A stretch of DNA of 37,470 bases from a virus (Duplodnaviria; Caudoviricetes). The notes below the pieces were generated by a model. It worked only from the letters and a program-made list of their open reading frames with translations. It searched no databases and was not told the DNA's origin. A program made the position numbers and the translations under genes. Of the stretch, positions 3,717-36,827 are shown one piece after another (the first letter of the stretch is position 1; every line of letters begins with the position of its first letter). The DNA lies in the IMG/VR virus record IMGVR_UViG_3300048853_000030, positions 1 through 37,470 of that record, one strand, 5' to 3'.

Positions 3717-6700
3717 AGGCCTGCCGCCGAGAGCGTCGGAGTCAACCCGTCCATCACGCCCGAGTCGATAGTCGCCTTGATCTTCTTGTTCTCGCGCGTA
3801 GCCTGCAGGATCGCGATCAGCACCTCTTTCAGCTCGTCGGCACTGGCACCCAGCGCCTGGGAGATTCCGTCGATGGAGTTGGCCGATGTGTCGACCGTGG
3901 GGGCCAGATCACCGAGCGATACCTGCCCGCTGTTCGCCATGTTGACGTACGGAGGAGTGACTGCTGACGCGACCGCGAATCCGCCGCCCGCAACGAGTGC
4001 GGCCCAGTCGTAGAAGTTCTTCGGCTTCAGCGCATCCGACGTGTCCTCGGCGTATCCGGCGAACCCGCCGGCGGCGTACGAGTCCATCATTCCCAGGTGG
4101 CGCCCCGTCTCGAGCCATAGCGCTTTCGACCGCGGTGACCCGTTGAGCGGAATGTAGGACTCCGGCCCAGCCTCGCCTGCCTGGGTGAGCCAGATGCGTT
4201 CGCGATTGAGTACCTGCGCGGACCCCGGCGCCCGGTCTTCGATCGCGCCACGCGCGTACGCAGAGATAGCGAGAGGCCCGATGTTGCCGAGCTTCTCGGG
4301 TCCCGTCGTGGACTCCGACTCGGCTCCCGGTGTCGCAGGTGATGATGAAGACGTTGAGGTCGTGGTTGTCGTCAACTGTGATGGCCAGTTCGTCACGAAG
4401 ACAGGCTCGCCCGAACCGCTCGTCGCGCTGCCGGTCTGCGTCGTGGTGGATCGCGTCATCGATGCTGCGATCTCGGCGTCGGCCTCAGCCTCCTTCGCCG
4501 CATAATTCGAGCCGTCCGCGGTCCCGGAACGTTGAACGGCCTGGGCCAGTTGCGCTTCGGTCATTCCCTCGGCGCCTTCGACCTTGTTAGCAGCGTCGTA
4601 GTAGGCGTTTGCTGCGTAGGCCGGATCCATGCGCTGCTCGACAGTGCCCCACTCCGGACGCTGCTGCAGGATGCCCGCGTTGTCGCCGTCCGTGCCGTGA
4701 TCGAGGTTCTCGCCACCGGTCTCAGCCAGCGTGGCCATGACGGCAGACTTGATCTCCTTGTCGGACTCGCCGCGACGCTTACCCTCGGCGATGACGGTGT
4801 CGATGTTCTTCTGCTTGGCGGTACGCGTATCCGGCGCGCCGATTTGCCCGGCCGCGCCCGGGTCGCCCTGCAGTGGCATCCATGCCGTGCTGCCCGACAG
4901 GCTTCGCGAACCATCCGGCCCGTCGTACTGGCCGTCACCGCGCGCGCCGCCCATCTCGATGTTGACGTCGCCGCCGACCGGATCGATGATCGTGCCGGCC
5001 GTGTGCTCCGGATTCCACGTCACCTCGTACGCCGGAACACCAGTGGGTGCGGAGCCCGGCTGCAGGCCATGGCCGGCGGTGTAACTGTCGAAGTTGGCCG
5101 TACCCGCGCGTGCACCGGTGCCCGGTGAAGCGTTCAGGCCATCGGCGTAGTTCATTGCGATCGACTGGCCGCCAGAGCAGTCAGTCATCCAGCCGTTGCC
5201 CCAGTCGCCATAGCTGTAGGGGGCGCCCTCGATGCCGCGCATGTAGTCCTTGAGCTGACCAACTGACGCGACAGGACCACCGGTCGCCCGGGGCACACCC
5301 AGCTCCAACGTGCCGTCGTTGATAGCGGCCATGACCCTCGGGCCATACTTCTCGGCCGAGGAAGTCTTGATGACCCACTCGCCGTCAGAGGTTGGGGTGA
5401 GGATCTTGTCGCCAGTCGGACCGCCCGGGCCGCGCACCGGTCCACCTGCCGCACGCCGAGCACCCAACGGCACATCCTCCGCCGTTCCATACTGGGCATT
5501 CGTCGGGATGTTGTTGACGAAGATCGTTTTGGTCTCAGTCTTGAGAAGCTCCGCCATCTTCCGGCGCGCCTCTTCGTCATTCAGATTGATGACCACGGAG
5601 CCGTCAGGCAACGTCGTGGTGGTGACGCCGAGCTGCTTGAGCCGCTCGATGTTCTGTGGACTCGTGTCGTCGATCTTGATGAACCCACCCGGCAGCGACG
5701 TGGTCTGGATCCCCAAGTCCGACAACTTCTTCATGTTCTCGGCGGTTGTATCCGTGATCACCAAGCGACCATCAGGAAGAGTCGTGTACTTGATCTTCAG
5801 CTCGTCGAGGCGGCGGCGGGTCTCCTCGGTGTTGTCGATAACGCGGACCTTGCCTTCAGGCAGATTCGATGCCTTGATGCCCACCGTGTTCAGGTCAGCG
5901 ATCGCCTTCTGGACAGTCTGGGTGTCGAGCTTCAACACCTTCTCGTCCGGGACGAGTCCGTAAGCGTCGGCCAGCTTGTTGGCCAGGTCGACGTTCATCC
6001 CGCCCGCCACAGCCGCGTCGACAAATGCCTGACGCTGCCGGACTAGCGCTTGCCGAGTCGTGTCCAGTGCCTGGGGAAGGTCCTGCCCGGAGGCCAGAGC
6101 CGCCTCGTACGTGGCCACAGCCATCTGGTTGAACGCCTCGGTCTGCGACTGCACCGTGTTCTGAAGCGCGGAGCCCTTCTCCGTGGTGACGTCGATATGA
6201 CCGTTCAGCCCGACCGTCGCCGCGCCACCATCTTCCAAGGCCTTGGCGAAGTCCCTCATGTTGTCCGACCACGACTGCAACGCTTCTTCTTGCGTCAGCT
6301 TGTCGTTATCGAGACCATCGAGAGCCTTCGCCAGCTTGTCGACCTTTGACGCTGCGCCATCGGTGGATTCGCCGAATTCGATCATTGCCTCGGACATCGG
6401 ACCGACAGCCTGCGTCGTGTTGTCGAACGACTTCACAATGTCGCCGTTCGCCTCACCCAACTGCTGCGCGCGCGTCTTCGCCTGCTCAACCTGCGAGTTC
6501 GTCGACCCCAGAGCGTTGCCGGTCTTCAGTGCGGCTTGGCCGGCGGCGTCGAGCTTGCCACCGAGCTCGCTCCAGTCGTTCGACGACGTCTTGATGTTCC
6601 CGGCGATGAGCTTCTGCTCGACCTCGTCCTGCGCCTTCTTGTTGCCGCGCAACGCCGACGAGTACAACTCGACCGAGACGCCAGCCTTTTCGTAGGCCTC

Positions 6701-9928: not shown

Positions 9929-10666
9929 CTATGCGGCAGCGAAGGTGACGGTGCCGCCGGTGCCGGTTGCCGAGGTGGTGGTGGGGATCGGCGCGAGGGT
10001 GATCGAGAAGTCCGGTGCGGCACCGGTGACGGTCGCCAGATCGACGGTCGACAGAGCTTCGAGAGCGGTCTTGATCGCAGCAGCGTTCGAGCTGACCGGA
10101 ATGGACGAGGTCGCCTGGCCATCCACGGTCAGAACCGATGCAGTTGTTCCGAAGCCGTAGTGCAGGGCCAGGTTCGCGCCGGGCTTGGTGATCGACTTGG
10201 GCTTGCCGCGACCGGTCAGGTTGCCCGAGAACTTCTGCAGTTCGTTCGGCTTGCCGCCCTTGAGGGAGGCCTTGACTGCGGCGTGCAACTCGAACGCCTC
10301 GTCGAGTTCGTCTGTCCGCCAGTAGCGCAGGTGCACGTGGGCATCCGAGCCGGTCTCTTGCGAGGCGGCGACGAGGAACTGCATACCGGGGTCGGCGGTG
10401 AAGGTCGAGCCCTCGTCGACGCCCTTGACCAGGCCCTCGAAGTCGATGGAGAAGGCGTTGCCGGCGACGGCCTGCGACTCCCACCCGTCGGAGGTGATGT
10501 CGGAGTCGTCTTCGAGTTTGGGGTCGAACTTCGGCTCGAAGTTGGTCAGGCCGTTGACGAAAACCCAGATGGGTGCGACCGCTGTGCCGATGTTGACCTG
10601 CACCCCATACCGGCCGGCTGGGATGACTGCGAGGCCCGAACCATCGGGCGGGGTGAGTGTAGGCAT
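9929..10666 (-). CDS. Major tail (tube) protein
   Basis: 245 aa; DITSDGWESQ motif; after tail terminator; Thr/Ala-rich C-terminal extension. Confidence 0.88.
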   Translation of the reverse strand: MPTLTPPDGSGLAVIPAGRYGVQVNIGTAVAPIWVFVNGLTNFEPKFDPKLEDDSDITSDGWESQAVAGNAFSIDFEGLVKGVDEGSTFTADPGMQFLVAASQETGSDAHVHLRYWRTDELDEAFELHAAVKASLKGGKPNELQKFSGNLTGRGKPKSITKPGANLALHYGFGTTASVLTVDGQATSSIPVSSNAAAIKTALEALSTVDLATVTGAAPDFSITLAPIPTTTSATGTGGTVTFAAA

Positions 10667-24594: not shown

Positions 24595-26402
24595 GCTGCC
24601 ACCGGCTCACTGTGGAGTGCGGCCCGGAGCCGTCGCCCGATCCACTCGCCAACCTGGGGTGAGACGGCGTTACCGAAGCCGTCGACCTGATTGCGAGCGC
24701 TACCCCAGACGATGAAGGTGCCTTGTTCGCCGGCGAAGTCAACGTCGAACCCACAACCGCGGCCGACTTCGTGGGCGGCCATCATCCGGAAGTAGCAGTC
24801 CTCGAGCGCGAGTTCGGACAGGGACCGCTGCCATTCGGCCGCAAGCAGCGCGGTGGTGTCGCGGGAGGTGAGTGTCCCGAACGGGTCCGCGAGTGGATGC
24901 GGTGCGGTCTCGGTCCCGGAGGACCCGTTCTGCTTGTACCAACCGGAGAACAGAAGGCCATGGCCAGCGCCGTCCGCGACGACGGTCTTCAGTGGTTGGT
25001 CCACACCTGACACCCGGCGGTCGCTGCCCTGACGGAACTGCACTGTGCCGGCGGCCGTGAGCAGTCCGGGTATCTGGTCGGCGGTGACGGTGGGCATTGC
25101 TTCGGCGTGGGTGGTGGGGACGGTGTTCTGCCGAAACGGCAGCACACCAGATGACAGCAGGCCGAGCGTCTCTGACCCACCTTGCGTGGGCAGCGACTCG
25201 TCGACACCTCGCGGTGCGCCTTGGAAGTTGTTGACGGCGAGCAGGATCGCTTTCTCGTGGGTGCTGGTGACCGTGTCCATCGGTTGGGTGAGGTGTTTCC
25301 CGTCGCCGTTGTGTCGGTGGGCGACGAGCACGGAGCCGGTTGACAACAGTGCTGTCTCTTGTTGGCTGGTCTGGGTGGCCAGCGGCTGCCACGGATGACG
25401 CTCTGAGCCCCGGGTGGCCTTCGCGGGTAGAAGCACAGCGGGGAACTCGGCGAACCTCTGCCGGCATCGTTCGGCCCGGGCCATGGTGGCGGCGGCGAGC
25501 GGCTTCTTGCGGTCCCCGATCCGGGTACCGAGGTCAGATAGGTCGAGCGCTGCGAGCGAGGGCGTCTGCGGTGGAACCACTTCGGCTCGGCACCGAGGGC
25601 ACCTGTAGTTGTACTGCTTCCCGTACCGAACGGACCCGGTAGGTGGCACACCCGTCTTCCACGACCACACGGCCTCCACCGTCTGGTCGCAGGAGCTGCA
25701 CCACGACGGCGGCCGGTGATCCAGGTCTGGCGCCGGGACGTTGCGGTCCCAGAACACGATGTACAGCCGGTCGCGGGACTGGGGGACACCGAAGAACATC
25801 GAGTTCAGGTACAGCACCTTGTGCCGGTAGCCAAGCTTGTCGAACTCGTTGAGCCACCACCGGTAGGTCGAGCCGTCCCCGACCTTCGCGCGCCCGGGTA
25901 TGGCCGGGCCCCACGACGTGAGCTCGGTGGTGCACTCGACAAGGATCATTCGTGGATGATGTTGCGCCGCATAGTGCAGAACACAGTTTGCGGTGGCCCG
26001 GTCGCGCTCGGATCGGGTGACGCGTTCGTCGAAGTCGGGGTCGTCGAGGTCGAATAGCGACACCCCCTGTTGGTACGCCTTCTGTGTGTTGGCCTGCGAG
26101 TGGTTGACGCAGGAGACGCCGGCGACGAGGAGGTCGCCGGGTGGCAGGTCGCGGGCGGAGTGGTAGTCCGTTGAGGTGGGGTCGACGAGGTCGGCGATCC
26201 AGTGCTCGGCGGTGGGGTGGTTCGCTTCGTGGACTTCGACTTTGTAGCGGTTGTGGTTGGCGGCCATGATCGTTGTGAACCCGGCGCGTTCGATGCCTCG
26301 AGTGAGTCCACCGAATCCGGAGAACAGATCGACGGCGACGAGATCGTCGTGCGCGAACTTTCGCTCACGAACAGCGGGCCTGTGTTCTGCAGTCTGCGTC
26401 AT
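24591..26402 (-). CDS. DNA cytosine-5 methyltransferase
   Basis: DLFSGFGG (motif I), GVSC (IV), VEC (VI), PQSRDRLY (VIII), GNAVSP (X); start re-called at MTQTAEH. Confidence 0.88.
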   Translation of the reverse strand: MTQTAEHRPAVRERKFAHDDLVAVDLFSGFGGLTRGIERAGFTTIMAANHNRYKVEVHEANHPTAEHWIADLVDPTSTDYHSARDLPPGDLLVAGVSCVNHSQANTQKAYQQGVSLFDLDDPDFDERVTRSERDRATANCVLHYAAQHHPRMILVECTTELTSWGPAIPGRAKVGDGSTYRWWLNEFDKLGYRHKVLYLNSMFFGVPQSRDRLYIVFWDRNVPAPDLDHRPPSWCSSCDQTVEAVWSWKTGVPPTGSVRYGKQYNYRCPRCRAEVVPPQTPSLAALDLSDLGTRIGDRKKPLAAATMARAERCRQRFAEFPAVLLPAKATRGSERHPWQPLATQTSQQETALLSTGSVLVAHRHNGDGKHLTQPMDTVTSTHEKAILLAVNNFQGAPRGVDESLPTQGGSETLGLLSSGVLPFRQNTVPTTHAEAMPTVTADQIPGLLTAAGTVQFRQGSDRRVSGVDQPLKTVVADGAGHGLLFSGWYKQNGSSGTETAPHPLADPFGTLTSRDTTALLAAEWQRSLSELALEDCYFRMMAAHEVGRGCGFDVDFAGEQGTFIVWGSARNQVDGFGNAVSPQVGEWIGRRLRAALHSEPVAA

Positions 26403-31736: not shown

Positions 31737-31997
31737 TCAGGCGGACTTGCGTTTGATGGTTCGAGATCTGGGGGAGAGGCCGGACGGCCGCGGGGGATCG
31801 GGGTCGCGAGTCTTCGTGGCCATTAGGTCGAGTGCTTGCTGGACCTGGGCGGGAGTGACCCGCCAGATGTGGCCGACCTTGGTGCCCGGCCAGGTGCGAG
31901 ATGCCAAGCGACGCTTGTACATATCGACGCTGCACGGGATCAAGGCGGCGGCGTCCTCGACCGACATCGTCAGTGGGCGGGTGTCGAGTTCGGTCAT
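31737..31997 (-). CDS. Excisionase-like HTH DNA-binding protein
   Basis: MSVEDAAALI...GTKVGHIWRV MerR/Xis-type wHTH; early operon position. Confidence 0.7.
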   Translation of the reverse strand: MTELDTRPLTMSVEDAAALIPCSVDMYKRRLASRTWPGTKVGHIWRVTPAQVQQALDLMATKTRDPDPPRPSGLSPRSRTIKRKSA

Positions 31998-32782
31998 GCC
32001 GCACGCTGGTTAACGCGTCGGTGGATCAACTCAACACCACGGGGGAGGACCTGCAGGGTGTAGTGAGTGCACGAACCCCACTGATGCTCAACGACTTTCT
32101 CGCGAGTCTGGAAGTGGTGCGCGTACTGGGCGTAGAAGTCGTACATCACTGCGCCACAAGGGGCGTGTTTGACGAAGATCAACTTTTCCTCGAGCAACCA
32201 GCGCCGAAGATCCTTCTCTTTCCAGTCGAGGACCTTCGCGACCTCGCGAACCAGACGAGCGCCACCCTGCGACAGGAGGTAGTCATCGGCGAGATCAGCC
32301 TTCGGTGCGAGCTCGGCGACCTGAGCCTCCGCCCGGTCGGCCCGTTCAGCCTCGTCGGCTGCAGCACGGAGTGCCTCTGCGTAAGTGCGGGGGAGTGCCG
32401 GCGTCGCGGCGGCAACCTCAGCCTCGCGGGTCTTGATGACGAAGTACGTTTGCGCCGCTGCGATCTCCGGTTTGCGGGGGTCGCCGTTCAGGGCGACGAG
32501 ATAGCACGCGTAGCGCGAGAGGTGAAAGTCTTCGGCTGCAGGTCCGCTAGCTGCAACTTTGCGGGCGCCCGCAAAGTTGCGGATGGAGTCCGATCCGGAA
32601 TTGTGGCAAGCGACCCGAGCTCGCTCGATCGCGTTGGCGAAGTCGCGCCACACGGTGTATCCGAGCATCGACATCAGGTCGCGCGCCGACCAGTACTCGC
32701 GGCCCTCGGGGGTGACGTGCCTGATCGCATCGAACGGTGAGACCTCGCCGACCTCCGCGGGGGCGTTACGCTGATCGTGCAT
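31994..32782 (-). CDS. Antirepressor (Bro-N/DinD-like N-terminus plus ANT/KilAC C-terminus)
   Basis: EYWSARDL, LSRYACYLVALNGDPRK...AQTYF, LPRTYAEALR and APKADLAD motifs. Confidence 0.9.
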   Translation of the reverse strand: MHDQRNAPAEVGEVSPFDAIRHVTPEGREYWSARDLMSMLGYTVWRDFANAIERARVACHNSGSDSIRNFAGARKVAASGPAAEDFHLSRYACYLVALNGDPRKPEIAAAQTYFVIKTREAEVAAATPALPRTYAEALRAAADEAERADRAEAQVAELAPKADLADDYLLSQGGARLVREVAKVLDWKEKDLRRWLLEEKLIFVKHAPCGAVMYDFYAQYAHHFQTREKVVEHQWGSCTHYTLQVLPRGVELIHRRVNQRAA

Positions 32783-32805
32783 GGGAGATATGTCCTCTCT
32801 TGTTG

Positions 32806-32840
32806 GCCGCCCGGTGTTCGCGCACCGTGGCGGCTTTCTT
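32806..32840 (+). terminator. Intrinsic terminator-like hairpin oriented antisense to the early operon
   Basis: GCCGCCCGGTG-ttcgcg-CACCG(T)GGCGGC followed by TTTCTT on the + strand. Confidence 0.55.
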
Positions 32841-33139
32841 TATGCCGCTTTCGCCTTCTTGCGGGCGTCAGGTGTGGTCAAAGTCGGGGACTTTCTGTCC
32901 ACGAAAAGAGTCCCAGGTAGGACGCGGAGTGCCTCCTCGATGAGGTCGCCGATCTGGCGGGTGCACGTTCTGCGTTCGCCAGTGACAAGTAGGTGGATGA
33001 ACTGGCGGGAGCAGCCGCAGTATCGGGCGAGCCGCGCCTGGGTGAAGTCCGCGTTCTCCATGTAACGAACGAGGAGGTCGGGGTCTCGTACTTGCATCCA
33101 CATTCCCTTCGAACGTTTGCGTCTCGTGCTCGCCTTCAT
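32840..33139 (-). CDS. Cro-like XRE HTH regulator
   Basis: FTQARLARYCGCSRQFIHLL HTH; first gene of the leftward operon; RBS GGAGG. Confidence 0.85.
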   Translation of the reverse strand: MKASTRRKRSKGMWMQVRDPDLLVRYMENADFTQARLARYCGCSRQFIHLLVTGERRTCTRQIGDLIEEALRVLPGTLFVDRKSPTLTTPDARKKAKAA

Positions 33140-33183
33140 GAGTCTGCCTCCCGGCTTGTTAGTTGTCAACGGCTTGCGCCACA

Positions 33184-33213
33184 ACTGTATTCTGGCGGTT
33201 GACAGAATGTCAA
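33184..33213 (-). promoter_or_regulatory. SigA-type early lytic promoter TTGACA-N18-TACAGT
   Basis: -35 at 33208-33213 and -10 at 33184-33189 on the minus strand, upstream of cro. Confidence 0.75.
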
Positions 33214-33214
33214 C
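33198..33214. promoter_or_regulatory. Operator palindrome GTTGACA-GAA-TGTCAAC
   Basis: Perfect 7-3-7 inverted repeat over the -35; further GTTGACA half-sites near 33164, 33278 and 33313. Confidence 0.7.
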
Positions 33215-33372
33215 GACTTACAGCCCTGTAATTCAGCACGTCGCAGGTCATATCGGGTAGGCCGGGAATGCTCGCTGGTTGACACCAAACCGCTAGAGTG
33301 TGTCCTCAACCAGTTGACATATCGGAACTGGTGCGAGTGACATCAACGACTACCCGCCGGAGACTTCCTCTC

Positions 33373-33945
33373 ATGCACGCATTCGGACGCTTTATCCAGA
33401 CAGAGCTCGATGCTCGTGGCTGGCGACAGGCCGAACTCGTGCGTAAGTCAGGACTCCAGCGGCAGCATCTCTCGAAGCTGCTCAACGACCGGCGTGACTA
33501 CCTCGGGCAAATGCCCGACGAACACACGCTCACACGCATCGCGGCCGGCTTCGAAATTCCCGTCGCCACCGTCCGTGCGGCCGCAGCCCGGGCCCTCGTC
33601 GGATACGAGGACTCGGGGGAGTCTCTGACTTTCGAACTCGCAGACGTCTCAACGGACGCGCTGCTGAATGAGATTCGGAGACGGATAGATGCCAACACGT
33701 CTGCTGCCCCACAGACTCCGCCGAAACCGGGAACACCGGGCGAAGAGAGTGAAGACCAGGAGGGCAAGGTCTACGCCTTTACTCCACCGGATCAAGACGG
33801 CAACCTTGACGACCCTGAACCCGACTACTCGCTGCCCGGCGTGGCCTACACACCCAAGCTGGGGGAGAAGGGGTCGAAAGAAGCGCGCGATCAGGATGAG
33901 CTCGCTGAGCGGCCCGATCCCGACGGGCCTGATGAGGGTTCATGA
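33373..33945 (+). CDS. Immunity repressor (XRE HTH, ImmR-like, no S24 peptidase domain)
   Basis: WRQAELVRKSGLQRQHLSKLL HTH; divergent from cro; acidic Pro-rich tail; start could be 33298. Confidence 0.85.
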   Translation: MHAFGRFIQTELDARGWRQAELVRKSGLQRQHLSKLLNDRRDYLGQMPDEHTLTRIAAGFEIPVATVRAAAARALVGYEDSGESLTFELADVSTDALLNEIRRRIDANTSAAPQTPPKPGTPGEESEDQEGKVYAFTPPDQDGNLDDPEPDYSLPGVAYTPKLGEKGSKEARDQDELAERPDPDGPDEGS

Positions 33946-33999
33946 TCTGCCACAATCGGCAGTGAGAGAACAGAGCGATGCCGAAAGGGGGTGAATGAG

Positions 34000-34617
34000 A
34001 TGGCATATCCAATTGACTTGACGATCGTCCTGTCGGGCGCGACGAAGGCTCAGTTAGCAACTTGGCGGCGACCGCCCAATCCAGTGCTCGAGCCGGAGGT
34101 CGCGTCAAGACCACGCATCCTCTATTCGTTTCGCGACATCCTCGCGTTGCGGACGATCGTGAAGTTGAGACGCGATGTTTCTCTCCAGAAAGTGCGGCGC
34201 GCGTTCGACTCGCTGAGAACCGATTTGGAACTTACCGATCACCCGTCGGCGTATCGACTGGTTGCGCATGGTTCCTCTATTGCCCTCGTTCACGACGACG
34301 GCGCGACCGACCTGGTAAAAAAGCCTGGTCACGAGTTGCTGGTGACGATGGACGACGTCATCGCCGAGTTCGAGAACTTCCGTGGTGACCGAGTCGTCAA
34401 CCTCTTGCATCCACGTCCTGGCGTTGAAGTGAAGCCCGGCCGGCTAAGTGGATGGCCCACCGTCCGGAACACTCGAGTCGGCTACGACACCGTCGCCGAC
34501 CTCGTCGCTGGGGGTGTGGCGCCCACAGAGGTGAGCGACTACTACCCGACAGTCGCCGCCGAATATGTCGCCGACGCCGTGGACTTCGCGGAAGAAGTCA
34601 GCAGGGCCGCATCTTGA
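34000..34617 (+). CDS. MerR-HTH plus DUF433 antitoxin (VapB45-like)
   Basis: LYSFRDILALR, VSLQKVRRA and PGRLSGWPTVRNTRV...DAVDF motifs; start may be GTG 33991. Confidence 0.85.
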   Translation: MAYPIDLTIVLSGATKAQLATWRRPPNPVLEPEVASRPRILYSFRDILALRTIVKLRRDVSLQKVRRAFDSLRTDLELTDHPSAYRLVAHGSSIALVHDDGATDLVKKPGHELLVTMDDVIAEFENFRGDRVVNLLHPRPGVEVKPGRLSGWPTVRNTRVGYDTVADLVAGGVAPTEVSDYYPTVAAEYVADAVDFAEEVSRAAS

Positions 34618-35048
34618 GAGTGTTTCTCGACGAATCAGTCAACATGAAGGCGATCCCGCCCGTGCGGGCCATGTTCCCTGAACACGAATATTTTGCATCG
34701 GGCGTCGACGCGCCACCAGGCCTTGACGATACGGACCTTTACCCGTTGGTCGCGGATCTCGGCTGCCAGATCTACATCTGCGGCGACATACGACAGCTAG
34801 ACACACGTGTGCATGAGGTGATTGCGTGCGGCAAGGCAGGCCTGCACTGGGTCGGTGTCCAAAAGGTGCCCGCGCGGGGCCGCGGGACTGCCACTGCCGA
34901 CGCCTCCCGGATGATCGGCGGACTGCTCCACGTCTTCAACGACGTCGCTGCGGAACCGGATGACCCGAAGTATTACCACCTCGGCGCTGGTCCGATAGAT
35001 CTGGCGGCCGCATGTGAGCAGCGCGGCCTGATAAGTGAAATCACCTAG
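34614..35048 (+). CDS. PIN-domain toxin (VapC45-like)
   Basis: TTG start overlapping the antitoxin stop (TTGA); RVFLDES, GLDD and ICGD acidic PIN motifs; 144 aa. Confidence 0.8.
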   Translation: MRVFLDESVNMKAIPPVRAMFPEHEYFASGVDAPPGLDDTDLYPLVADLGCQIYICGDIRQLDTRVHEVIACGKAGLHWVGVQKVPARGRGTATADASRMIGGLLHVFNDVAAEPDDPKYYHLGAGPIDLAAACEQRGLISEIT

Positions 35049-35074
35049 ATGTAATTCGTTGTCGCGCAACGGCT

Positions 35075-35096
35075 TGTCGGTGGTTACCGATAGAAC
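35075..35096 (+). promoter_or_regulatory. PafBC/RecA-NDp-like DNA-damage promoter (TGTCGG-N10-TAGAAC), leaderless start at 35103
   Basis: Matches TGTCGG-N10-TA-N3-T except the last base; ATG 6 nt after the -10; no SD. Confidence 0.6.
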
Positions 35097-35102
35097 GTCG
35101 GC

Positions 35103-35567
35103 ATGGATACGAAGCTCATGCCAAGCCGCCACCGGTGGCACCCTTGGCGCACCTTGCGAGAGCAGTACCCGCACGTGCGGGTGGTGACAACGCGGCACCT
35201 ACTGGCAGGCCGTCACGGCCACCACGACGGCCGTTATATCTGGATCTGCGCTGGCCTGACGCAGGTGCAGCGTCGTTGCGCGTTGACGCACGAGCTTATC
35301 CACGTCGAGCGCGGCATCTTCCCGGCGGACGCCGCAGAAGAAGCACTCGTCGAACGCCTCACCGCGCTGCGAATGATCACCTTCGAAGAACTCCTATCTG
35401 CCTTCCGTTGGGATCGCCACCCCGACCCGGCCGAGATGGCGGAGGAACTGTGGGTGACAGTCGACGTTCTCGACACCCGTATCCGCCACCTGGACCCGAT
35501 TGAGGTCGCCGAACTCGAGCACCACCTCGGTGGCGACTGGAGCTACGTACGAGGAGCAGCATCATGA
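35103..35567 (+). CDS. ImmA/IrrE family metallo-endopeptidase
   Basis: WHPWR N-terminus, QRRCALTHELIH (HExxH), EE and AEELWV motifs. Confidence 0.88.
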   Translation: MDTKLMPSRHRWHPWRTLREQYPHVRVVTTRHLLAGRHGHHDGRYIWICAGLTQVQRRCALTHELIHVERGIFPADAAEEALVERLTALRMITFEELLSAFRWDRHPDPAEMAEELWVTVDVLDTRIRHLDPIEVAELEHHLGGDWSYVRGAAS

Positions 35568-35872
35568 CTGATCTCGACTGTGCGATTCTCGACTTCGAGT
35601 CTCAGTGGTGGCGGGCGCGCGGCAACAAGGAAGCAGCGATCCGCGAGCAGTTCGGTTGGTCGCCGGTTCGGTACGCGCAAAAGCTGAACCAGATCCTGGA
35701 TAATTCGGATGCGCTCGCTCACAACCCGCACGTTGTGAACCGGCTGCGACGAATTCGGTCGCAGCGGAACCATGCCCGCAAGGACCGAGAGGGTCTCTTA
35801 CATGAAGCGTCAGCTGATCGCAGCCTTGGGCCTGACCGCGGTGATGCTCGGAGGATGCACCGGGGCGGATGA
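35564..35872 (+). CDS. DUF3263 family protein
   Basis: AILDFESQWW...KEAAIREQFGWSPVRYAQKLN...P..VNRLRR; ATGA overlap with immA. Confidence 0.85.
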   Translation: MTDLDCAILDFESQWWRARGNKEAAIREQFGWSPVRYAQKLNQILDNSDALAHNPHVVNRLRRIRSQRNHARKDREGLLHEASADRSLGPDRGDARRMHRGG

Positions 35873-36131
35873 ATCGTCGCCGACCACGGTGCCTACATCG
35901 ATCGACCCGGGGCAAGCCGAAGCTGTTTCGTCGTGTCGTAACGCGGTTGACGCCGGCGGTGAGATGCAGGAGGACTGGCGATTCAGCCGAACCAATACCA
36001 CCGAAGGACTGGTCGTCGGAACGTACGTGCCACGCGGATCCGCTTCTGCACCGAAGGGCTACCAATGCCACGTCAACTTCTACGGGGGCACGGACTTGGT
36101 GCAGCTAACTCGTGTCGTCGATTGGGGATGA
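35802..36131 (+). CDS. Lipoprotein
   Basis: MKRQLIAALGLTAVMLGGC signal peptide II with lipobox; 109 aa. Confidence 0.75.
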   Translation: MKRQLIAALGLTAVMLGGCTGADESSPTTVPTSIDPGQAEAVSSCRNAVDAGGEMQEDWRFSRTNTTEGLVVGTYVPRGSASAPKGYQCHVNFYGGTDLVQLTRVVDWG

Positions 36132-36252
36132 GCGTTTCCTCCTGTTGCCTCAGGCAACACGCCCGGTGGGTTTCCCCAGGTCGCCCAATATTCTGCGACG
36201 CTCGCCCGTAGTGCATTCGTGCAGGTCAACCGGCATTTTCCCAGGTGACACA

Positions 36253-36278
36253 AGGGGTTCGAGTCCCCTTAGCTCCAC
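36253..36278 (+). other. att core (prophage boundary): 3' end of tRNA-Ala
   Basis: AGGGGTTCGAGTCCCCTTAGCTCCAC is a T-arm plus acceptor 3' strand matching actinobacterial tRNA-Ala; no 5' tRNA half upstream. Confidence 0.85.
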
Positions 36279-36293
36279 CGTTGATGCAAGATG

Positions 36294-36342
36294 ATCCACC
36301 TGTCCACGACATACGTCGTCGGCAGGTGGATTGTTCGTTTGT
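36294..36342 (+). terminator. Intrinsic terminator, probably the original tRNA gene terminator
   Basis: ATCCACCTG/CAGGTGGAT stem with inner ACGAC/GTCGT, followed by TGTTCGTTTGT. Confidence 0.65.
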
Positions 36343-36425
36343 GGGCCGTGCGAAGCCCGCCGGTAACAACTTTGCGATCATGAACGAGGAATCAAAGAAG
36401 ACGTTCGTGAAAGGACCCCGCTGCT

Positions 36426-36827
36426 GTGAACCTGCCGAAGAGATCTGGGCAACCGGGTCGGGTGTTCCTCATCGCGGCGGCGATACTGCTCGTCGTGGCT
36501 GCGGCGTTCGCGTTCTGGCCGGTCGACAACTCGCAGGGCACGGGCTGCGGGAGCTGGGCACTCAAAGACGACTCGTCGGCGGTGGCGAAGGACGCCGAGT
36601 TCAACCTGGGCGACACCACGAAGGACCTGACCCGAGCGCTGGCCGATCGGTATCTCGGCGACAACTCCGCCAACAGTCTCGGGCTCGGCGACAACACCAG
36701 CCAAGTGCAGGCATGCGAGTCCGCGCGCGGAGACCAGACCAGCGAGGTCGTGATCTTCGGATTGGCCGGAGCGGCTGCACTCGTGGTGGGCTTGATACGC
36801 AGGTATCAGCCGACGCGGGCCACCTGA
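36426..36827 (+). CDS. Membrane protein with two TM segments (host side)
   Basis: Hydrophobic N- and C-terminal helices flanking a CGS...C loop. Confidence 0.7.
   Translation: MNLPKRSGQPGRVFLIAAAILLVVAAAFAFWPVDNSQGTGCGSWALKDDSSAVAKDAEFNLGDTTKDLTRALADRYLGDNSANSLGLGDNTSQVQACESARGDQTSEVVIFGLAGAAALVVGLIRRYQPTRAT

Follow-up and report, generated by a model that had tools for sequence, protein, structure and literature searches.

The immA switch and its predicted PafBC-type promoter

The window analysed here is the whole 37,470-nucleotide (nt) stretch of IMG/VR virus record IMGVR_UViG_3300048853_000030 (37.5 kb, 64% GC), part of a temperate, siphovirus-like prophage. Its lysis-lysogeny switch module occupies the window's right end, and the lytic genes run leftward, starting from a Cro-like gene. 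Rightward, the order is repressor, a DUF433 gene and its partner, immA, DUF3263, a small lipoprotein gene and a tRNA-Ala 3' fragment. Three genes and one promoter of this module are central. The immunity repressor (33373..33945, + strand) has an Xre-type helix-turn-helix (HTH) and an acidic tail and is without an S24 autoprotease domain. The immA gene (35103..35567, +), predicted to be leaderless, encodes an ImmA/IrrE-like zinc metallopeptidase. It is overlapped at its stop by the gene for DUF3263, a NapA-like DNA-binding protein (35564..35872, +), and is preceded by a PafBC-type promoter (35075..35096, +) with a -26 element TGTCGG, a 10-nt spacer and a -10 element TAGAAC. The nearest relatives of this ImmA come from Williamsia, with 93% identity in W. 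muralis.

In the promoter, TGTCGG (35075-35080) is followed by TGGTTACCGA, TAGAAC (35091-35096), GTCGGC and the immA ATG at 35103, exactly where the original prediction had placed a TGTCGG-N10-TAGAAC element with an ATG 6 nt further on and no Shine-Dalgarno sequence (SD). The published PafBC consensus is tGTCgg(N10)tA(N3)T, its -26 element occupying -23 to -28 relative to the start site (PMC8635444). The site in the window has the GTC-containing -26 element, the 10-nt spacer and the TA of the -10 element, and TGTCGG lies at -28 to -23 if the immA ATG is taken as +1, in agreement with the published distance. The final T of the -10 element, present in 35 of 41 aligned family sites, is a C in the window (position -7). 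This deviation, already pointed out in the original prediction, is common to the relatives L081 and L001 (loci are given by L numbers); L002 has an A. Because the two closest relatives carry it too, the C is a lineage trait and not a fresh mutation. It lowers the PafBC-promoter claim for the window copy, not for the family.

Within the window alone the motif is at chance level (six matches against 6.1 expected at one mismatch; TGTCGG-N10-TA once against 0.43 expected), so that its weight rests on position and on conservation in relatives. The switch had also been said to lack a LexA box, and none with two or fewer mismatches occurs after position 24817. A LexA-like match with one mismatch in the major tail gene (10524-10539), beside the top matrix site at 10498, is probably due to chance.

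The HExxH motif first described for ImmA is confirmed: the THELIH sequence is present, and the ATGA overlap with DUF3263 is found at 35564. Residues H63, E64, H67 and E80 are invariant in 40 of 40 aligned proteins, giving HExxH and a downstream glutamate. The Pfam M78 match is weak (E 0.011; 16 bits versus a cut-off of 22), the match to PHROG 87 metallo-protease has E 6e-18, and neither NCBIfam nor a PDB sequence search with the ImmA profile gave a match. The predicted model is confident (pLDDT score 92), and the top Foldseek rows include IrrE/PprI (3dte, 8sln) at probability 1.0 with E about 0.01-0.02, i.e. above 0.001. The protein is 154 residues long versus 240-248 for the IrrE/PprI chains, and is therefore likely to be without their GAF domain.

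The repressor likewise agrees with its first description, having an Xre-type HTH, no S24 match and a tail in which D and E make up 27% of the last 30 residues versus 14% elsewhere. None of 49 candidate repressors of the family matches S24 and 22 match HTH_31; they were chosen by position, the repressor profile being too narrow (10 matches), and none was chosen for L048, L093 and L147. Candidate repressor tails are acidic across the family, and the tail is a candidate ImmA docking or cleavage region. The proteins that share it are otherwise very diverse, 20 of the 49 having GEESQD- or PxGPExGA-like ending words (a loose pattern; window 33850-33942).

Conservation of the promoter and exchange with LexA boxes

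Relatives were collected with a 40-protein ImmA alignment, taking the best 80 of 113 confirmed viral loci and the best 80 of 81 genomic loci, chosen without regard to the motif. Seven loci with an unaligned N-terminus or a low score (L044, L086, L138, L146, L155, L157 and L160) were dropped, leaving 154 loci, window included, in 52 clusters at 70% identity. The motif, with one mismatch at most, stands 6-8 nt before an in-frame immA start in 36 of the 52 clusters (23 of them perfect; 41 at two mismatches) and in 117 of the 154 loci. The conservation in homologues that had been named as the check on the promoter is thus strong. The same test, with the same freedom of start choice, matches 5 of 525 other open reading frames (ORFs) in these loci, a somewhat low rate since the control ORFs were chosen by codon bias and include spurious ones; shuffled controls gave a mean of 0.06 and a maximum of 2. 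All 36 motif-bearing immA starts are without an SD.

A converse, motif-first scan of viral contigs used a pattern of the McdR-type palindromic box described below, 17-19 nt and TGTC; it covered 38 of 64 parts and 120 loci. It gave 122 matches, 96 in low-GC DNA without immA and 26 in high-GC DNA. All 11 high-GC matches with TGTCRG also have TA-N3-T, which lies outside the search pattern, and a leaderless immA 7-8 nt further on; some of these contigs are the same as those in the family locus set. A chance match is the reading that holds for the window taken alone; for the family it is ruled out by the cluster counts, the controls and the motif-first scan. ImmA relatives occur in 290 phage records, Mycobacterium abscessus prophages included, and the promoter was read in four named records: Sbash carries a perfect McdR-type box and the PafBC motif at immA, and Che9c, prophiGD22-1 and BritBrat carry the same box-motif pair.

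A clade-wide variant is found in L004, L007, L012, L016, L038 (Gordonia-type) and the L054-L071 group, where the -26 element and spacing are kept and one -10 base is lost (TC-N3-T or CA-N3-T), which suggests a deliberate weakening of the immA promoter.

Loci without the motif are informative in another way. A LexA box lies within 90 nt of immA in none of the 41 motif-bearing clusters and in 6 of the 11 motif-less ones; L124 adds a seventh, giving 7 of 11 (7 of 52 overall). The SOS box by which LexA-controlled antirepressors are recognised is accordingly absent from the switch/immA region of the window and present in seven relatives. On the ImmA tree the LexA label needs four changes, three of them required by branches with good support, and it forms a single group in no bootstrap tree, although the bootstrap behind this count is not fully settled. 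Since two host damage regulators alternate at one position, damage-controlled transcription of immA seems to be what selection keeps, and this alternation is its strongest sign. Another account, that motif-less loci belong to hosts without PafBC, is ruled out: Actinomyces, Schaalia and Arthrobacter hosts have PafC-type matches.

Host evidence was taken from W. muralis, the genome with the 93% identical ImmA. It has pafA-pafB-pafC and 53 exact copies of the PafBC motif versus 10 for the reversed pattern. Among 30 fetched copies, several precede recA, ssb, uvrC, a UvrD helicase gene, a glutaredoxin-like gene and DUF222 genes.

A proposed damage-driven induction route and its alternatives

These observations are best accounted for by a prophage induction module in which host PafBC would switch on a leaderless immA message and the predicted protease would cut the S24-less repressor. 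A probability of roughly 0.7 is given to this reading. The conserved regulatory design is real and the mechanism likely. In the proposed route, damage would lead through single-stranded DNA (ssDNA) to PafBC activation, as published for the host, and a PafBC-adapted SigA polymerase would start at the immA ATG, as the observed geometry suggests. As immA has no SD, its translation would depend mainly on a message beginning with its ATG, and read-through RNA in lysogens should yield little protease. By analogy with phi105 and ICEBs1, ImmA would then cleave the repressor and free the cro promoter.

Several observations weigh against this reading, beginning with the window copy itself. Its matrix score (13.2) is under those of all 14 host training sites (15.3-29.2), and it ranks second in the window, behind an intragenic site. 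Absence of an SD is not PafBC-specific, one being found at 0 of 36 motif-bearing and 1 of 11 motif-less clusters. Four clusters have neither motif nor LexA box, though the hosts checked carry PafBC-like genes. In an uninduced Sbash lysogen, genes 40-43, the IrrE-like gene included, are expressed (PMC6426596). RNA from another locus of the family points the same way: three raw runs of one study, conditions not given, were mapped to L018 (99% identical to prophiGD22-1 over 4.5 kb), and none shows a 5' pile or depth step at the predicted immA start (6020), in libraries that do resolve a start at 5004; a further run, X24, does not contain the region. The immA RNA of L018 comes instead from upstream, through starts near 5892 and read-through. 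Finally, in the related proteases CapP and PprI it is the finished protein that ssDNA activates, and ImmA may need the same.

The low matrix score, together with the T kept at -7 by most family sites, would suit a family-wide wiring that is real and a window copy that is weakened or dead. This is improbable: relatives at 94% and 69% ImmA identity share the deviation and, with a varying spacer, keep the -26 element, the TA and the spacing, and single -10 deviations are common in the family and compatible with tuning for low leak.

The immA RNA of L018 is low (depth 2-10, 16-28 and 35-128 versus 281-1330 in three upstream-gene bins), which agrees with a promoter that stays silent unless DNA is damaged. 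Read-through in lysogens makes it probable that immA RNA has sources besides PafBC; the proposal that PafBC drives immA needs amending on this point and is otherwise supported by the conserved motif, the mutual exclusion with LexA and the host regulon. The lack of an SD in all motif-bearing clusters suggests that read-through immA RNA is poorly translated. Upstream of immA in L018, a small convergent HTH gene (L018:5498-5818, -) gives much RNA in two runs and little in the run with the most immA RNA, which may point to transcriptional interference between the two.

Constant low-level synthesis of ImmA, the finished protein being activated by ssDNA or RecA in the manner of CapP, PprI or phi105 ImmA, and a real PafBC promoter that only boosts the response, would explain the Sbash expression and the L018 upstream start and read-through. 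It is favoured further by the fold likeness of ImmA to PprI, which, to judge from a structure title, has been seen bound to ssDNA, and by the precedent of CapP, which is activated by ssDNA as a protein (bioRxiv 2022.04.27.489752). It is nevertheless unlikely, given the uniform lack of an SD at motif-bearing starts, the probable lack of a GAF domain in the 154-residue ImmA, and the repeated exchange with LexA boxes, which implies selection on transcriptional control of immA.

The promoter might also serve mainly the genes behind immA (DUF3263, integrase) for excision, ImmA being incidental. Sbash and Che9c have a 1.2-kb gene next in the same direction, annotated as integrase in Sbash, and three of the five control ORF matches described above are serine integrases carrying their own motif. 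In every motif-bearing cluster, however, the predicted start coincides with the ATG of immA, DUF3263 is unmatched in 14 of these 36 clusters, the window has no integrase behind immA, and those of BritBrat and prophiGD22-1 are on the other strand, all of which makes this explanation very improbable. The three serine integrases (L001:6687-8075, L093:1992-3401 and L108:3499-4893, all on the - strand) have leaderless PafBC-type promoters and converge on the immA operon; excision genes may thus be damage-induced too.

Control of immA by PafBC, as preferred here, can be set beside several known systems. As in the ImmR-ImmA pair of phi105 and ICEBs1, an S24-less Xre repressor is accompanied by a separate HExxH metallopeptidase; damage leads to ImmR cleavage there (bioRxiv 2022.04.27.489752, PMC13492144), as would be expected here. 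Unlike in those elements, where ImmA is activated via RecA or RapI, immA in the present family stands behind the promoter signature of a host activator, is predicted to start leaderless and is separated from the repressor by variable cargo. Phage antirepressors controlled by LexA include 186 Tum and that of Gifsy. In phi11 GP07 and GIL01, as probably here, the gene for a phage antirepressor is under the control of a host damage regulator (PMC13492144). The control proposed for the window differs in that an activator would re-programme SigA in place of derepression, that it would be RecA-independent, and that the antirepressor is a predicted protease.

The window element has the motif that host PafBC promoters show before recA, ssb and uvrC, and its -26 element is at the published distance from the predicted start; it differs in serving a prophage lysis-lysogeny gene, in its C at the last -10 base and in its McdR-type box at a fixed spacing. 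CapP/CapH and PprI(IrrE)/DdrO share a probably related peptidase fold and damage-triggered repressor cleavage, the latter being presumed for the window. In those systems ssDNA is sensed at the protein level, whereas the predicted sensing step here is a host transcription factor. An ImmA-ImmR ancestry of PprI-DdrO is reportedly the subject of a 2025 paper, to judge from its title.

In the searched papers there is no tested answer to how actinobacterial temperate phages with autoprotease-less repressors sense damage. The literature searched, including the available parts of PMC12392091 and PMC9030533, holds no report of prophage control by PafBC or McdR; most subscription papers and supplementary target tables were outside the search. 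The placement of immA behind a PafBC signature likely lets the host damage alarm wake the prophage without the classical SOS trigger. If so, induction would be RecA-independent, and strong induction by gyrase inhibitors, which are selective PafBC inducers (PMC8682763), is expected. Given the ImmA relatives in M. abscessus prophages, this bears on the waking of prophages by antibiotics in clinical strains.

McdR-type palindromes, DUF3263 and accessory genes

McdR (Rv1830, ResR) binds AATnACA-N4-TGTnATT in DIP-seq (DNA immunoprecipitation sequencing) and electrophoretic mobility shift assays (EMSA), the latter including an M. smegmatis gene termed a Rv0430 homologue (PMC9040748), and mismatch tolerance of the site has been noted (PMC10336103). 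In 22 of the 41 motif-bearing clusters this palindrome precedes TGTC by 17-20 nt. The window contains it exactly twice, each copy with one mismatch (0.22 expected at two mismatches). The first, ACTTACAGCCCTGTAATT (33216..33233), is in the cro-repressor switch and adjoins the -35 element of the predicted lytic promoter; the second, AATCACCTAGATGTAATT (35039..35056), precedes the PafBC element by 18 nt. Of 42 clusters with a Cro match, 15 have the switch copy, and so does Sbash, which carries both boxes (immA and cro-repressor switch), including a perfect copy. Just five other box matches occur in 521 kb of loci, three of them 76-99 nt before a repressor start and a fourth probably likewise.

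The AATnACAnnnnTGTnATT palindrome with its 4-nt spacer is that of the published McdR/ResR regulon and is also present at host DUF3263 genes. The sites described in print overlap the start site and bring about repression, whereas in the phage one box has its centre about 55 nt before the predicted start and the second is in the phage switch. A second host regulator, likely McdR/ResR, may thus bind at two places, the immA promoter and the cro-repressor switch, and tune the induction threshold to the state of cell division. The co-expressed NapA-like DUF3263 would belong to this McdR circuit and not to the protease; the sites are seen, the binder and its sign are presumed. The full two-input switch, in which PafBC would make the only translatable immA message in a RecA-independent way, McdR/ResR would act at both sites, the captured NapA-like gene would modulate the brake, and PafBC would have been swapped for LexA several times, is put forward tentatively, as possible rather than probable. 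The McdR-type boxes would then connect that essential regulator, for the first time, with a decision in the life cycle of a phage.

DUF3263 matches its Pfam family with E 4e-30 and NapA (PDB 9n2n, solved bound to AT-rich DNA) by sequence with E 2e-16. The fold search gave only middling Z scores, and it is the sequence match that identifies the NapA homology. The protein does not reach the NapA equivalog cut-off of NCBIfam NF053843 (81 bits versus 160) and is thus a homologue, not filed as NapA. In spite of this clear homology to DNA-bound NapA (Rv0430), it is phage-borne and about 50% identical to the host copies. The original prediction made it a partner of ImmA, and the overlap of the two genes stands. 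An obligate, coupled partnership is unsupported: no DUF3263 match lies downstream in 28 of 52 clusters (some contigs being short), and other ORFs intervene in some loci, such as L081. A search for a longer form returned one protein among 7992 scored, without the DUF3263 label, which is a weak test.

The immA box and DUF3263 occur together in 21 clusters, the box alone in five, DUF3263 alone in three and neither in 23, counts made without correction for shared ancestry. In 8 of 10 hosts the box also precedes chromosomal DUF3263 genes. The chromosomal arrangement spans Mycobacteriales and Micrococcales (L227-L230, L196-L198, L200), and in four hosts the box lies about 9-12 nt after a TAGAT(T/G) -10-like word. 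DUF3263 may accordingly be read as a captured member of the McdR regulon.

The co-occurrence in phages and hosts, and the kinship of DUF3263 with a DNA-binding protein, would also suit autoregulation, with the phage DUF3263 and not host McdR binding the palindrome; this side question leaves PafBC control of immA untouched. Since McdR binds the motif directly by EMSA (PMC9040748), 7 of 28 clusters without a DUF3263 match still carry the box, and several of the 12 sites in the host are at loci that look cell-cycle-related, autoregulation is rather unlikely and McdR is clearly the more probable binder.

These 12 sites in W. muralis have at most one mismatch, against none for a control pattern, and are at loci which we take to resemble oriC, parS/rsmG, fbiA-whiB2 and ripA. 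In this genome (G001; L210-L221) boxes adjoin sequences that resemble DnaA boxes and parS, and precede genes for the cell wall and for division, which suggests an McdR cell-cycle regulon wider than published. In 4 of 5 host loci, the FHA, MerR and bifunctional nuclease genes are followed by a conserved MerR gene, presumably, from synteny, the Rv1830 orthologue.

Perfect McdR-type boxes occur away from immA in other high-GC phages (L248, L273, L274, L288, L331), in such places as the interval from a DUF7341-like late regulator region to terminase genes, or ahead of a secreted-protein gene, as the roles are read from translations. Between the box and the -26 element, many mycobacterial and Gordonia loci (e.g. 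L359:1756-1764) share a CCTGGTCA/GCAGGTCA-like word that the window lacks.

On the lytic side, the Cro-like HTH gene (32840..33139, -; Pfam HTH_31/HTH_26, PHROG transcription regulators) heads the operon and is followed by a BRO-N/KilAC antirepressor gene (31994-32782). The predicted lytic promoter, TTGACA-N18-TACAGT (33184..33213, -), is the sole sigma-70-type site in 32700-36500, with 0.8 expected by chance, and is weak evidence alone. A repeat search found five GTTGACA/TGTCAAC half-sites (33164..33319; at 33164, 33198, 33208, 33278 and 33313), which are candidate repressor operators.

At the other end of the module, a small predicted lipoprotein (35802..36131, +), an accessory gene without a family match, has a signal-peptide/lipobox-like N-terminus in translation. 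The likely right attachment site (36252..36280, +) is a tRNA-Ala 3' end without the 5' half. The W. muralis genome has this core within two whole tRNA-Ala genes and, once, by itself beside the immA of a related prophage; the tRNA-Ala reading comes from this comparison, Rfam giving just one sub-threshold tmRNA match at the core.

The coordinates first given for the switch are correct, though that description had omitted both palindromes and a two-gene DUF433 cassette (33991-35048) between repressor and immA. Its first gene encodes a MerR-like HTH and DUF433 protein by Pfam (33991..34617, +), accessory cargo found by profile in just 2 of 52 representative loci and so outside the core switch. The partner (34614..35048, +), without a family match, is from its context a likely PIN-type toxin; it weakly matches the partner in L128, and the DUF433 partner in L159 is PIN_10. 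In relatives the same slot is a cargo hot spot holding DUF433-PIN, HicA, DUF6932, DUF3037, a D12 methyltransferase or unlabelled pairs, likely lysogen-expressed toxin-antitoxin or defence genes.

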